Assembly: GCA_963815455.1 (NCBI GenBank)
Contig: CAWFGO010000001.1
Location: 160,001 to 224,000, forward strand
Reading direction: 5' to 3'
Origin: an uncultured Verrucomicrobiae bacterium
GTDB lineage: Bacteria > Verrucomicrobiota > Verrucomicrobiia > Chthoniobacterales > UBA10450
Length of the DNA stretch: 64,000 nt
Each line of letters starts with the position of its first letter. The stretch's first letter is position 1. The notes below the pieces were generated by a model that was not told the DNA's origin, ran no database searches, and saw nothing but the letters and a program-made list of their open reading frames with translations. Made by a program: the position numbers and the translations under genes. Shown here in pieces: positions 12,099 through 45,164 of the stretch.

Positions 12099-13622
12099 CT
12101 AATCCACCCAATCCATTGCCGCGAGCATGCTGCGAAAATCCGGGTCATCGGTCGAAAGCGGCGGAAGCCATTCGCCGATTAGCTCGCGTTTCCACCATGC
12201 TTTTTCGCCGGGCGGCGCAAACTGGTAACGATAGAGACGCGCCCGAATGTAATGCGGCGGTGCAGTTGGAAATGGATTGTTTGCGATCAGCGAAAGCGTG
12301 CCGGGATCGTTGTGCAGAAGTTTCCAGACAAAATGGAACGTCCAGGGATAATCGCCTGGCGAGGCCATGGCGGCGAACCAGATTTGCCAGTCGATCCGCG
12401 GTTGATATGGCGCCATGAATGGCGGCCGTCGGTTCGGATCGCCGGGTTTGGCTTTGAATTCGTACTCCTTCCACTCGGCGCCGGTGAGGAACAGGCTGTC
12501 GGTTCCTTCAAAAATGATCTCGTCGCGTTCGCGACCAACAGTTCCGAAGGCACCGTAGGTGTTGACCAGATCAAGCGGGTCGTAGGAGTAATTCATCAAT
12601 TGCCGGCCGGAAGCCAGGTTCAGCACGGGCGCGATGCTCAAATAGGCCACCAGGATCGCCAAAGTGATGGTGAGGCAATTCGTAATCGGCGACGGTTTAG
12701 ATTCCTGTGCAGCTCGCTCAGCGCGCTGAACGAGACCTTTCGGCAAAACGTGGCGTAGAAACGTGTCGTCGAAGCAGGCGAGGAAGGGAATGATCGTCAA
12801 ATAGTTCAGGAACGACAGATTGCCGCTGATGATGAGAAAGATCTGAAGCGTCACCAGCAGCACGCCCGCAACGTGGCGCGCCGTTCGCGGCCCGAATGAG
12901 AACCATGGCACTATTACTTCAACAAAATGGTTCCAAGCCGTTTCAAATTTGAGCAGCCAAAGCGGCGAAAAATGCAAATAGCGGCTGATCGGGTTCGGGA
13001 TCGGCTGGGTCTCGTAGTGATAGTAAAGACAAGTGAGATCGCGCCAGCAAGGATCGCCCCGCAATTTGATGAGCCCGGCCCCGATCATGATTCGAAAACC
13101 GAGCCACCGAAAAAGCCAGATCACAAGAATCGGCGGCCGGCACTTCGGAAACGGGCGGCCATCGAACAGCGGGCAAAGAAAGATCGACAAAAAACCGGTT
13201 TCGAGCAGTTGAATCTCCCAGCCGTAACCGTACCAGATTTGGCCGATGTGAACGATCGACATGTACATCGCCCACAACACCGTGAGAATGATGGCATTGG
13301 CATATCCGGCGAGGAGAACAACCGACAAAGCGAAGCCGATCCAGGAGAAGATCGACAGCGCGTTGTCAGAAATTCCGAACCAGAACAGCGTCGGCATCTG
13401 GAGCATCGCAGCGGACCCCGAACCGGAGTGGGCCTGGATTCGTTCAAGAAAATGATTCGCTGGAGTTAGCCCATGCTCACCAACGAGTGGCACCAGTTGA
13501 TTCGCCGCGACCAGGAAGGCAATCGCGTAAACGAAACCGAGCAGACGAAGAATGATGAATCGCGTCAGCCAGTAGGAATTTCCGAGCGCGAAGAACTTTG
13601 CCAGAATATTCTCGTCATTCAT
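12099..13622 (-). CDS. Lipase maturation factor (LMF1) family membrane protein
   Basis: GYGWEIQLLETGF, GAGLIKLRGD, YHYETQPIP, SGNLSFLNYLT and PYQPRIDWQIWFAAM motifs. Confidence 0.92.
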   Translation of the reverse strand: MNDENILAKFFALGNSYWLTRFIILRLLGFVYAIAFLVAANQLVPLVGEHGLTPANHFLERIQAHSGSGSAAMLQMPTLFWFGISDNALSIFSWIGFALSVVLLAGYANAIILTVLWAMYMSIVHIGQIWYGYGWEIQLLETGFLSIFLCPLFDGRPFPKCRPPILVIWLFRWLGFRIMIGAGLIKLRGDPCWRDLTCLYYHYETQPIPNPISRYLHFSPLWLLKFETAWNHFVEVIVPWFSFGPRTARHVAGVLLVTLQIFLIISGNLSFLNYLTIIPFLACFDDTFLRHVLPKGLVQRAERAAQESKPSPITNCLTITLAILVAYLSIAPVLNLASGRQLMNYSYDPLDLVNTYGAFGTVGRERDEIIFEGTDSLFLTGAEWKEYEFKAKPGDPNRRPPFMAPYQPRIDWQIWFAAMASPGDYPWTFHFVWKLLHNDPGTLSLIANNPFPTAPPHYIRARLYRYQFAPPGEKAWWKRELIGEWLPPLSTDDPDFRSMLAAMDWVD

Positions 13623-13692
13623 GAAACCACCACCGCGTGACTGAAACCTTCAACGCTCACCGCTCCAGGCCCAACACTCAACTCATTTGCCA

Positions 13693-13817
13693 GTCATCCC
13701 GAGGCGCGAAGACGCCGAGGGATCTCACAAGTTACGGAACAGCTGCGTAAATAATACGAGCACCGGTTCGAATTCCAATCCGTCCCTCGCGAGGTCCCTC
13801 GCTTCGCTCGGGATGAC
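13693..13817. repeat. GTCAT...ATGAC palindromic element
   Basis: GTCATCCCGAGG...GAGGGATCTC paired with GAGGTCCCTCGCTTCGCTCGGGATGAC. Confidence 0.8.
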
Positions 13818-13847
13818 AAACAAATGACGCCACGCTTCCAGGTCGCG

Positions 13848-13876
13848 TTGACACGCCCCGCGACGTGTTCAACTTT
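13848..13876 (+). promoter_or_regulatory. Putative sigma70 promoter of the tRNA locus
   Basis: TTGACA at 13848-13853 and a weak -10 (CAACTT/AACTTT) 16-17 bp downstream, about 12 nt before the first tRNA-like copy. Confidence 0.45.
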
Positions 13877-13887
13877 CTTTGCCTCGC

Positions 13888-13938
13888 GCCAGGGTAGCTC
13901 AGCGGTAGAGCAGCCCCGAAAGCTTTCGGGGTTGGTCG
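13888..13938 (+). pseudogene. 5' tRNA(CAT) fragment with the anticodon arm replaced by an 18-bp palindrome
   Basis: GCCAGGGTAGCTCAGCGGTAGAGCAG is identical to the tRNA 5' end. It is followed by CCCCGAAAGCTTTCGGGG and then TTGGTCG. No T-arm. Confidence 0.85.
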
Positions 13939-13973
13939 CATCCTGAGTTAGAATTGGCGCTACAAAATTTGCC

Positions 13974-14045
13974 GCCAGGGTAGCTCAGCGGTAGAGCAGG
14001 GGACTCATAAGCCCTTGGTCGGGAGTTCAATTCTCCCCCCTGGCA
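13974..14045 (+). tRNA. tRNA with CAT anticodon (elongator Met or Ile2, not initiator); CCA not encoded
   Basis: Cloverleaf: acceptor GCCAGGG/CCCTGGC, D-arm GCTC/GAGC, anticodon loop CTCATAA, T-arm GGGAG-TTCAATT-CTCCC, discriminator A. Confidence 0.93.
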
Positions 14046-14052
14046 CTCCCCT

Positions 14053-14295
14053 GTGCCGTGGATTTATATTTTGAAAGGTTCATCTGGCCGACATTACATC
14101 GGGTCGACAATTGATCTGGATGCACGACTGGCTCAGCATCGCCGCGGCCACACCCATACAACCAAAAGGCTTGGAAAAAATCTGGACGTGATAGCAAGTA
14201 AAGAAGTAGGGACGCTCGATGAAGCGCGTAAAATCGAGCGGGCATTGAAGGCAAAGAAAAATCCGCAACTCGCCATTCACGCGTTGCAACCCTAG
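14053..14295 (+). CDS. Stand-alone small GIY-YIG nuclease
   Basis: WIYIL...HYIGST.DL..RL.QH..G...TTK...[10 protein letters not shown] retains the GIY-YIG Tyr, Arg and Glu residues. Confidence 0.9.
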
Positions 14296-14348
14296 AGCAG
14301 CCCCGAAAGCTTTCGGGGTTGGTCGGGAGTTCAATTCTCCCCCCTGGC
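14293..14348 (+). pseudogene. 3' tRNA(CAT) fragment with the anticodon arm replaced by the 18-bp palindrome
   Basis: TAGAGCAG + CCCCGAAAGCTTTCGGGG + TTGGTCGGGAGTTCAATTCTCCCCCCTGGC. Both flanks are identical to the tRNA. Confidence 0.85.
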
Positions 14349-14386
14349 GCTCCTTCGCCGGAAGGCGATTTCACATCGGATGCAAA

Positions 14387-14477
14387 GGTGGATCGGCCGT
14401 TCCGCGGACGATGCTAACCAAGTGGCGGTCTCCGGCCGCGTAAGATTACCATCGAGCGACTGAGCGCTCGATCCACC
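14387..14477. repeat. GGTGGATCG...CGATCCACC MITE-like element, copy 2
   Basis: Terminal inverted repeats and a conserved CGATG/CATCG internal stem. Confidence 0.8.
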
Positions 14478-14481
14478 TCCC

Positions 14482-15256
14482 CTAGTCTTTCTCCTTGGCT
14501 ACGTATGGCCTCAGATCTTTTTCATGGCCACGCAGCGCGGCCATAAAGCAAACGCCGTTGCGTTCCTTTCACTACGCCGGCCCAGCCCTCCTGCTCGACA
14601 TAGCGCCAACCCGAAAATTCCCGCACGGCGCCGGTCTTGGGATCTTTCTCGGCCGGGAACAGAAACAACTGCATTTTTTTCTCCACGATCCAAATCTGGG
14701 CGACGCGATGGCCGTCCTCGTCGTCGAAAACGCGCCAGCCGATCGTGCGAAAATCGGCGAACTCGGGGGGGACATCGTAGCGCTCCAGGTGGTGCTTCAT
14801 AAAAAAGAGATCGCCTAACGTGCCGGCATCGGCCGAAACCGGCTCGAGCAGGACCGATCTCGTCGAACCGGCGGTAGCCAGCAATTTTCTGGCAGCGCTG
14901 ATTCCCGGGAAATCGTGCATGTGTTCGATAAACTGGAAAACGAACACGCCCGCGATCACCGCCAGAGCAAGACCGATTGCCAGCACGGCCGGATTTTGGG
15001 CCGTTTTCTTCCAGCTAAACTTGTGGCTGGGAGCAAGGTCTTCACTGGAAAACCATTCCGCCACGTCCCCCGGAATCGGAATGGTTTGAATCAGCGCGGC
15101 CACGGCGCGATCAAAGCTCTGCTGGTTGGCAAATTCCTCCGTCCCCCGCGCGCGAAAAACCGCCGCGCGCATGAATCGATCGTCTATGAGCTCCTCGTTG
15201 ATGGGAGCGAGATTCAGCAAGACCCGTTGCTGACGAGACAACTGAACCGGTTTCAT
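14482..15256 (-). CDS. Single-TM protein downstream of an ECF sigma factor, putative anti-sigma (probable indel near 14566)
   Basis: Overlaps the sigma gene stop (ATGA). One TM segment (VLAIGLALAVIAGVFVF). An alternative frame continues ERNGVCFMAALRGHEKDLRPYVAKEKD* to 14482. Confidence 0.55.
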
Positions 15257-45081: not shown

Positions 45082-45164
45082 GTAGGGCGTTTCTGTGAAC
45101 CCCGAAAGCATTCGGGGCTGGCACAGAAACGCCCTACAAATCGACGGTCGGAGACCGCCGCTAC
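45082..45164. repeat. GTAG REP hairpin containing the 18-bp palindrome, plus a second REP arm
   Basis: GTAGGGCGTTTCTGTG..CCCCGAAAGCATTCGGGG..CACAGAAACGCCCTAC, then CGACGGTCGGAGACCGCCGCTAC. Confidence 0.8.

Follow-up and report, generated by a model that had tools for sequence, protein, structure and literature searches.

What is a very small nuclease gene doing between a working transfer RNA (tRNA) gene and damaged copies of the same tRNA? This arrangement occupies positions 13888 to 14348 of a 64,000-nt stretch of DNA, hereafter the window, from an uncultured Verrucomicrobiae bacterium (assembly GCA_963815455.1, contig CAWFGO010000001.1, positions 160,001 to 224,000, forward strand). An initial annotation described it as a minimal, integrase-free element made of a tRNA gene, a gene for an 80-amino-acid (aa) GIY-YIG protein and two tRNA fragments carrying a palindrome. 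The locus is almost certainly one copy of a recurrent and widespread family of tRNA-resident mini-cassettes, a design repeated at numerous tRNA genes of related soil bacteria. That the cassette is selfish and driven by recombination, with a nuclease that recognises its own hairpin, may equally well turn out right or wrong.

The order of the elements and their coordinates proved exact to the base (Table 1). In both tRNA copies, the 15-nt anticodon stem-loop is swapped for the same 18-nt palindrome, and the TAG of the D arm within the stub TAGAGCAG doubles as the stop codon of the nuclease open reading frame (ORF), both as first described. The window holds three matches to the palindrome (up to three mismatches) against 0.05 expected, and none of 100 shuffles reaches three; repetition by chance is excluded. 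The rest of the copies had been said to match the tRNA exactly, which holds for 26 of 26 and 30 of 30 positions. The upstream "5' fragment", however, does not end there: aligned to the tRNA, a decayed similarity runs on to TTGGCGC, the counterpart of the acceptor end, and the homologous upstream copies of relatives extend to tRNA position 53 or 59. This piece is better read as a full-length pseudo-tRNA with a decayed T arm than as a clean 5' fragment. The discriminator position is G in both pseudo-copies (13959, 14349) and A in the intact tRNA. A symmetric target-site duplication was also considered, in which the 33-bp direct repeat (TAGAGCAG, hairpin and TTGGTCG) would stem from staggered cuts 7-8 nt either side of the palindrome. 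It was rejected because the upstream copy is a decayed full-length pseudo-tRNA, the tRNA-like part of which ends at position 49, 53 or 59 depending on the lineage.

Table 1. Features of the tRNA-Met cassette and of the DNA just upstream of it, in window coordinates
Feature	Position	Strand	Remarks
Inverted REP-like pair GTCATCCCGAG..CTCGGGATGAC, upstream of the cassette	13686..13818 (units 13686-13722, 13782-13818)	.	
TTGACA box (probable -35)	13848..13853	+	34 nt before the upstream pseudo-tRNA
Upstream pseudo-tRNA, 5' part (tRNA positions 1-26)	13888..13913	+	BLAST against the tRNA, 26/26 identical
Hairpin/palindrome copy 1, CCCCGAAAGCTTTCGGGG, in place of the 15-nt anticodon stem-loop	13914..13931	+	
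Upstream pseudo-tRNA, remainder: TTGGTCG (13932-13938), decayed T arm, TTGGCGC (13954-13960), short spacer	13932..13973	+	Alignment
Intact tRNA-Met(CAT)	13974..14045 (Rfam); 13974-14046 (ARAGORN)	+	Rfam 67 bits
80-aa single-domain GIY-YIG ORF	14053..14295	+	GTG start 7 nt after 14045, TAG stop
tRNA stub, 8 nt, TAGAGCAG: 3' strand of the D arm plus the bases leading to the anticodon stem	14293..14300	+	
Hairpin/palindrome copy 2, same sequence as copy 1	14301..14318	+	
tRNA 3' part: variable loop, T arm, acceptor 3' strand	14319..14348	+	BLAST against the intact tRNA, 30/30

The ORF encodes a GIY-YIG domain (Pfam PF01541, residues 1-71, 49.5 bits against a cut-off of 22.6, E 5.4e-13) and nothing else; a DNA-binding domain such as those of I-TevI and SegB is absent by Pfam. 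Among solved structures, profile comparison places the UPF0213 proteins 1zg2 (E 7.7e-10) and 1ywl closest to it. SsnA of Neisseria meningitidis, a 94-aa single-domain GIY-YIG nuclease, binds the 28-nt hairpin motif NTS as single-stranded DNA (ssDNA) only, cuts a few nucleotides upstream of it and is inactive on double-stranded DNA (dsDNA) and on RNA (Chenal et al. 2025, PMC11893778). Mutation of its residues Y6, Y17 or E64 abolishes cutting (PMC11893778). In an alignment of nine cassette proteins, Y5, Y15, R25 and E62 are invariant and, by analogy, probably catalytic; Tyr5, Tyr15 and Glu62 stand near the residue numbers of the SsnA trio, which is a comparison of numbers and not of aligned positions. 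Purifying selection acts on the ORF: in comparisons with relatives, the ratio of non-synonymous to synonymous substitution (dN/dS) could be computed for 4 of 15 pairs and lies at 0.08-0.15, synonymous sites being saturated. No match to the protein at E 1e-3 was found in a phage collection (50,697 records) or in a plasmid collection.

A profile of nine cassette proteins has matches in 122 of the 301 sampled genomes of the phylum. Against a library of 1.84 billion proteins it returns 7,348 cluster representatives at E 1e-3 and 400 at 1e-10. The 89 loci examined comprise 29 returned by the phylum search, the window's own excluded, and 60 regions hand-picked from the match list; the ORF was re-detected in 87. 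A tRNA or transfer-messenger RNA (tmRNA) gene lies on the same strand within 400 nt upstream of it in 54 of these 87 loci and within 150 nt in 44, stands just downstream only in four, and cannot be sought over the full distance in nine loci that have under 400 nt of upstream sequence. The hosts belong to 23 tRNA/tmRNA species. Partial copies of the host tRNA, called like the hairpins by purpose-written scripts with fixed thresholds, accompany 39 of the 59 loci with a tRNA in range, and 32 of those 39 have an adjacent hairpin. Tandem arrays of two or three units occur at 7 of the 87 loci. The genomes are all metagenome-assembled or anonymous representatives, and relatives among them are non-independent samples.

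These cassettes share an anatomy. The typical order is a TTGACA box, a decayed full-length hairpin pseudo-tRNA, the intact tRNA, the GIY-YIG ORF, a stub, a hairpin and the tRNA 3' part. Downstream copies always run from the stub through the GC hairpin to the remainder of the tRNA, including its 3' end. The stub was measured as exactly matching bases in the 46 downstream copies whose hairpin abuts the 3' block: it is 6-11 nt long in 37 of them, 5 nt or less in eight and 14 nt in one, and several of the shortest owe their length to single mismatches. The hairpin itself differs by lineage: CCCCGA..TCGGGG with Met, Lys and Arg-CCT, (A)TCCCGC..GCGGGA(T) directly after CTCATAA with fMet-type, ATCCGCC..GGCGGAT with Asn and TCCCGA..TCGGGA with Pro hosts. 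The geometry of stub, hairpin and 3' part is common to all six lineages (Met, Lys, Arg, fMet-type, Asn, Pro). Every hairpin substitution or insertion falls in or beside the anticodon arm, and in some other lineages the hairpin stands beside the arm instead of replacing it. Swaps of the anticodon arm for a hairpin recur at other tRNA species, which the initial annotation had proposed to check. The 3' block is 100% identical to the working tRNA at nearly every locus, even where the tRNA differs between genomes.

One alternative is misassembly, a repeated tRNA region having been put together wrongly in a metagenome-assembled genome. The assembly has seven contigs and is 90% complete, many of the homologues are located at the ends of contigs, and no public read run containing the stretch was found (the best share of words was 0.09, probably due to the tRNA alone). 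The same ordered architecture is nevertheless found, in diverged sequence, in dozens of independent assemblies, single-contig genomes included, which leaves an artefact a negligible probability.

Within the 3.6-Mb assembly, all three homologues of the protein stand directly behind a same-strand tRNA gene (Met, Pro-CGG, Pro-GGG). The Pro-CGG copy is followed by a 5'-truncated tRNA copy in which the anticodon stem-loop is swapped for the GC hairpin gtcgccg-ccg-cggcgac, and then by a T run. The Pro-GGG copy is a pseudogene broken by a TGA, with no tRNA fragment visible. In total, Pfam finds nine GIY-YIG matches in this genome, including tmRNA-linked and REP-flanked small genes. One such gene lies 135 nt behind the tmRNA gene (L074, G000:C5:75712-75921), as does another 302 nt behind the tmRNA of a second genome (L145); no tmRNA fragment was seen downstream of either. 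Two others of a different subfamily (L070, G000:C2:522238-522456; L071, G000:C3:443690-443911) have REP-like units on both sides.

The same tRNA-Met locus was compared in 20 genomes, namely this one and 19 of 40 relatives searched. Nine loci carry the ORF with a hairpin-bearing 3' copy (protein identity to the window's 62-78%); among these are two tandem doublets of ORF and copy with a 305-nt period and one frameshifted ORF. Four have relics only, either an upstream pseudo-copy lacking the ORF or a degenerate copy together with an ORF stub that has an internal deletion, and in seven the tRNA is bare. One occupied locus (L020) and one relic (L028) come from the unpublished genomes G015 and G008; G003 is likewise unpublished. 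In the congener G001 the tRNA-Met is bare and tRNA-Lys(TTT) is occupied, the reverse of the situation here. The view of a minimal, integrase-free, tRNA-associated element is upheld by this presence and absence at one tRNA gene, by the tandem arrays and by the decayed relics. The four ORFs nearest the cassette (an LMF1-like protein, two without a family and an aminotransferase) include no integrase or transposase, as had been noted.

The host gene is probably the sole elongator tRNA-Met gene of the genome; judged by sequence, its two further CAT tRNAs resemble an initiator and a tRNA-Ile2. In the ARAGORN register, this tRNA-Met shows an A-G mismatch at the loop-proximal anticodon-stem pair and a G-T pair at the base of the stem. 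It is presumably functional all the same, because relatives conserve its sequence to 96-100%. Between the LMF1-like gene and a 244-aa ORF, the tRNA-Met segment, whether or not it carries the cassette, points one way in some relatives and the other way in others (window 12099-15256 versus L020-L041), which implies inversion of a small intergenic segment. The inverted REP-like pair upstream (Table 1) may or may not be part of the cassette.

By protein, 26 named public contigs could be matched, assigned to Candidatus Udaeobacter, Chthoniobacterales, other Verrucomicrobiota and, in one case, Terriglobales; they probably overlap the genomes already searched and are not independent of them. A tRNA lies within 150 nt upstream in 21 of the 26, a hairpin downstream of the ORF in 18 and a hairpin upstream of the tRNA in 14. 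Two loci, L085 (1161-1420) and L179 (268-530), have three and four tandem upstream hairpin-bearing pseudo-tRNAs with a period of about 81-88 nt, followed by a single intact tRNA. The contig labelled Terriglobales (L181) encodes a nuclease 56% identical to the window's, with the same hairpin in a tRNA-like context, which represents either transfer between phyla or a binning error. A repeat family, CTGTAGCGGCGGTCT..GCCGCTACA, was seen upstream of several tRNA loci (region G000:C3:490950-491000; L084 and L088 around 1220-1290).

Hairpin and nuclease vary together. In a FastTree tree of 100 cassette proteins, which has only 87 columns and many unresolved forks, a clade of 22 (support 97; hosts Met, Lys-TTT, Arg-CCT) has the CCCCGA..TCGGGG hairpin in 22 of 22 cases. 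Of the 14 members of another clade (support 99; fMet-type hosts), 12 carry the TCCCGC type, the remaining two having a TCCGGC hairpin and a truncated locus. Mapped on the tree, hairpin class switches 12 times, compared with 26 switches of tRNA host; the hairpin type goes with the nuclease clade and not with the tRNA. Across 41 related genomes, CCCCGAA-N4-TTCGGGG is present in all 17 with a close homologue (E 1e-6 or better; 2-52 copies) and in 3 of 24 without (5-6 copies each). The figures become 16 of 16 and 2 of 22 without the unpublished genomes, and 16 of 16 and 3 of 9 within the family alone. Across 45 hairpins from 22 loci, 629 of 630 cells at the 14 stem positions show no variation, although the hairpin filter fixed just the two outermost bases at each end, whereas in the four loop positions the majority base occurs in 39, 36, 40 and 23. 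Together with the low dN/dS at saturated synonymous sites, this stem invariance implies that hairpin stem and protein are both constrained. As ssDNA with its flanks, the hairpin folds at -11.4 kcal/mol on the sense and -7.5 on the antisense strand, against -5.9 for the natural anticodon arm; the sense-strand value is reached because flanking tRNA bases lengthen the stem. The proposal that the palindrome is a recognition mark gains indirect support from the clade-bound hairpin class, the invariant stem with its drifting loop and the co-occurrence across genomes. Its companion, that the palindrome simply confers immunity, is argued against by the intact, presumably cleavable tRNA in every cassette.

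The same data weigh on the idea that two unrelated things met here, with tRNA duplications arising around an inserted nuclease gene and the dead copies being colonised later by independent hairpin repeats. The hairpin is indeed a genome-wide repeat. Its 39 copies in this genome comprise 14 inside REP-like units, only 2 in the cassette and 23 elsewhere, and three of the 24 genomes lacking the nuclease clade hold the 5-6 copies mentioned. Such colonisation hardly fits the placement, however: all 22 clade cassettes have the hairpin between the same tRNA flanks (AGAGCAG before it, and TTGGT after it in Met and Lys hosts), in upstream and downstream copies alike and in three tRNA species. In G034, the sole nuclease-bearing genome outside the family, both hairpin copies (2/2) are confined to the cassette, and 21 genomes with neither nuclease nor hairpin beside 17 with both fit a linkage. 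An unrelated hairpin is thus quite improbable.

Beyond the cassette, a one-mismatch copy of the hairpin, CCCCGAAAGCATTCGGGG, sits in the window at 45100-45117, at the tip of the long inverted repeat GTAGGGCGTTTCTGTG..CACAGAAACGCCCTAC. As a general statistic, a position at the tip of larger hairpins does not discriminate, since at least five outer pairs were counted for 29 of the 39 copies and also for 52% of random-flank controls. The genome contains 369 REP-like GTCAT[CT]C[CT]GAG units, against 4-13 in five shuffles; the inverted pair just upstream of the cassette is part of this family. An uninterrupted hairpin-tRNA was considered as an excision footprint or target; the pattern of D arm, hairpin and T arm occurs at four places in 2 of 151 family genomes. 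This reading was rejected because all four are upstream pseudo-copies of occupied loci and none is a stand-alone gene.

Presence and absence at a single tRNA gene also recall classical free-standing homing, in which the enzyme would cut an unoccupied double-stranded tRNA gene in or near the anticodon arm, repair would proceed from the occupied allele and the hairpin copies would be immune remnants. The polymorphism of nine occupied, four relic and seven empty loci among 20 is of the expected kind, every hairpin substitution is located within or directly beside the anticodon arm, and broken and deleted copies suit a cycle of invasion and decay. A precedent exists in SegB of phage T4, a GIY-YIG enzyme reported to act on a tRNA T-arm motif (PMC2330249). 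Yet an intact copy of the supposed target is kept in every cassette, and the 80-aa protein consists of the catalytic domain without any DNA-binding domain. Moreover, immunity needs only a disrupted site, whereas across genera and three tRNA species the stem is constant in 629 of 630 cells, and it tracks the nuclease clade. Homing in this form is unlikely.

How the cassette might be expressed is suggested by its surroundings. In L025, L030, L033-L035, L038 and L039, a conserved TTGACA box precedes the first tRNA-like 5' end by 31-40 nt. In bare loci that distance is measured to the intact tRNA, and in occupied loci with an upstream copy to the pseudo-copy. This spacing implies that the pseudo-copy sits in the place of the ancestral gene, behind its probable promoter. 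The box is a putative promoter element; a consensus promoter scan did not call it. That scan found no promoter-like site private to the nuclease ORF or to the copies on the + strand, so the nuclease gene is probably co-transcribed with the tRNA. The choice of hosts may also be written in the tRNA. The motif TAGAGCAG-N13-19-TTGGT occurs in only 3 of 49 tRNA genes here, those of this tRNA-Met, of tRNA-Lys(TTT) and of the second CAT tRNA, and two of the three (Met and Lys-TTT) are precisely the tRNAs that this nuclease clade occupies in the family. The TAGAGCA flank is also present in Arg-CCT hosts elsewhere. What the system requires would accordingly seem to include the bases on either side of the anticodon arm.

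Co-transcription is also the starting point of a role at the RNA level, raised in the initial annotation, in which anticodon-less tRNA mimics would guide the nuclease or act as decoys for anticodon nucleases. The copies lie in the probable transcription unit of the tRNA, have no promoter-like site of their own on the + strand and carry a hairpin of nearly anticodon-arm length (18 versus 15 nt). ARAGORN and Rfam, however, call the intact tRNA alone and neither hairpin-bearing copy, the downstream copy lacks the 5' acceptor strand and the 5' half of the D arm, and the T arm of the upstream copy is ruined. Other lineages carry the hairpin beside the anticodon arm, and SsnA is reported not to bind RNA (PMC11893778). 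This alternative is not supported and is very improbable.

A selfish cassette that spreads by recombination could act as follows, a sequence of enzymatic and recombinational steps that we infer from the anatomy and that merits slightly guarded, at best balanced, credence. The cassette would be expressed from the tRNA promoter, and an mRNA with a leader of 7-11 nt would remain after processing of the tRNA 3' end. The nuclease would bind its own hairpin together with the 5' tRNA stub on the sense strand whenever this is single-stranded, much as Ssn acts on NTS hairpins; replication, heavy transcription of the tRNA gene or incoming DNA could provide that state. It would then nick the boundary of the cassette, that is, the junction of ORF and stub. 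The break would trigger recombination, either between the repeats derived from the tRNA or with an unoccupied tRNA gene on DNA that has been exchanged, the 26-32 nt of near-invariant tRNA sequence on each side serving as homology arms. In this way the cassette would be copied, after DNA exchange, into empty copies of the same highly conserved tRNA gene. Recombination would also expand and contract arrays and hold the pseudo-copies identical to the working tRNA, and the retained intact tRNA would render the insertion harmless. Such a model would account for the arrays, clean losses and relics, for the lasting match between 3' block and working tRNA, and for finding the same tRNA occupied despite rearranged flanks.

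Several observations count against this proposal. The cassette and its flanks have diverged from relatives about equally (72-79% versus 73-79% identity), so that long vertical descent with losses is as good an explanation of the patchy distribution as repeated invasion. No genome was seen to contain near-identical copies at more than one tRNA, and hence there is no sign of recent jumps. Among the 87 homologues, 20 have no nearby tRNA, and one 22-member nuclease clade shows few tRNA fragments. The cassette protein shows only marginal similarity (E 0.004-0.1) to the two small REP-flanked GIY-YIG proteins that this genome also encodes. The published SRM pattern of Ssn hairpins has 20 hits in the genome against 18-27 in five shuffles, with none at the cassette. 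GIY-YIG enzymes hydrolyse DNA and cannot join it, so spread would have to rely on host recombination, and the model does not explain the first replacement of an anticodon arm by a hairpin.

Equal divergence leads to the thought of a domesticated, vertically inherited host function, either an Ssn-like control of recombination with incoming DNA or the provision of decoy tRNA 3' ends that divert integrative elements. It would agree with the long-term purifying selection on the ORF (dN/dS 0.08-0.15, dS saturated) and with the T arm and acceptor strand retained in the downstream copy. Integrases commonly use these parts of a tRNA gene. SsnA has been reported to modulate transformation in Neisseria (PMC11893778). 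Presence is, however, patchy even between congeners, the nuclease clade is absent from 24 of 41 related genomes, pseudogenes, internal deletions and gene-less relics are frequent, and tandem amplification occurs. Domestication is accordingly improbable.

Should the selfish, recombination-driven reading hold, tRNA genes would harbour, beside integrase-borne islands and introns, far smaller selfish DNA consisting of a tiny nuclease and one hairpin, and such DNA would have spread through much of the phylum. It would give a natural context and a possible logic of mobility to the recently described hairpin-specific ssDNA nucleases. Since stub and hairpin adjoin each gene, many pairs of enzyme and hairpin with readable specificities would become available, and nuclease expression would be tied to tRNA transcription. 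An explanation would also emerge for the pseudo-tRNA fragments, tandem arrays and broken contigs met with at the tRNA genes of metagenome-assembled genomes. More tentatively, and with rather more doubt than confidence, the cassettes may form a distinct class of minimal mobile elements of about 0.3 kb. Such elements would combine a hairpin-guided ssDNA nuclease, a tRNA gene as portable homology arms, their own hairpin installed instead of the anticodon arm in sacrificed tRNA copies and a short-leader mRNA from tRNA processing; their host range would be set by the bases flanking the anticodon arm (TAGAGCAG..TTGGT), and their hairpin would also spread to hairpin tips elsewhere in the genome.

The literature searched, subscription journals being outside its scope, contained no description of a GIY-YIG cassette that is linked to a tRNA gene of a bacterial chromosome and accompanied by hairpin-swapped tRNA copies. 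The papers retrieved concerned Ssn, SegB and fungal mitochondrial genomes. Tyrosine-integrase elements at tRNA genes preserve the intact tRNA and mark their far side with a duplicated tRNA 3' end. The cassette shares both features but has no integrase in the four nearest ORFs, its insert is only about 0.3-0.4 kb, and the anticodon arm of the duplicated copy is replaced. The enzymes of IS200/IS605 and REP/RAYT are HUH tyrosine transposases, which cut and rejoin DNA. These systems resemble the proposed cassette in their small size, an enzyme that recognises ssDNA hairpins and genome-wide palindromic repeats; the only ORF of the cassette, in contrast, encodes a GIY-YIG domain, which hydrolyses DNA. 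In anticodon loops of bacterial tRNA genes, group I introns that contain homing endonuclease genes have been reported (PMC3984707). They have the anticodon loop or arm as insertion site in common with the cassette, and a GIY-YIG ORF is a possible passenger. The cassette differs in having no ribozyme (Rfam, at E up to 1, finds the intact tRNA only in 13500-14800) and in leaving the working tRNA uninterrupted, with the insert carried by separate dead copies.

SegB of phage T4 is a GIY-YIG homing endonuclease encoded in a tRNA gene cluster; it cuts dsDNA at a 27-bp site including the T-arm motif and drives the inheritance of itself and of neighbouring tRNA genes (PMC2330249). It has also been reported to drive segmental amplification (PMC13096335), to which the tandem arrays seen here may be compared, and in both cases a GIY-YIG gene lies among tRNA genes. 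SegB is a phage enzyme, however, whereas the cassette nuclease is chromosomal, and hairpin-swapped pseudo-tRNAs are not described for SegB.

The closest counterpart is the Ssn family. Its members are defined by CDD cd10448 or by BLAST E < 1e-10 to N. meningitidis SsnA (PMC11893778). The cassette nuclease resembles these ssDNA nucleases, and its membership is unproven. The cassette hairpin is not literally an SRM, which is ruled out by the missing enrichment and the missing hit at the cassette; nor does the SRM pattern hit within the four small GIY-YIG loci examined. A further difference is that the cassette hairpins are embedded in tRNA copies, where they replace the anticodon arm, and tRNA is unmentioned in the main text of PMC11893778. 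There are also several likenesses. Both proteins are small single-domain GIY-YIG enzymes without a DNA-binding domain (94 and 80 aa) and have a conserved Tyr, Tyr and Glu at nearly equal residue numbers. The gene ssnA is typically flanked by NTS, hundreds more copies of which are scattered in the genome (PMC11893778); the cassette gene likewise has a hairpin on both sides (13914, 14301), with further copies genome-wide. In both, hairpin and gene co-occur across genomes. The REP-like units of this genome resemble NTS/SRM hairpins in design, though they are missed by the published SRM pattern, and the REP-flanked layout of L070 and L071 is that of ssnA with its hairpins; these two genes look the most Ssn-like in the genome. 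Finally, both systems present an oriented 5' flank followed by a palindrome: SsnA is reported to cut just upstream of its motif, and the junction of the cassette lies 6-11 nt upstream of the hairpin.

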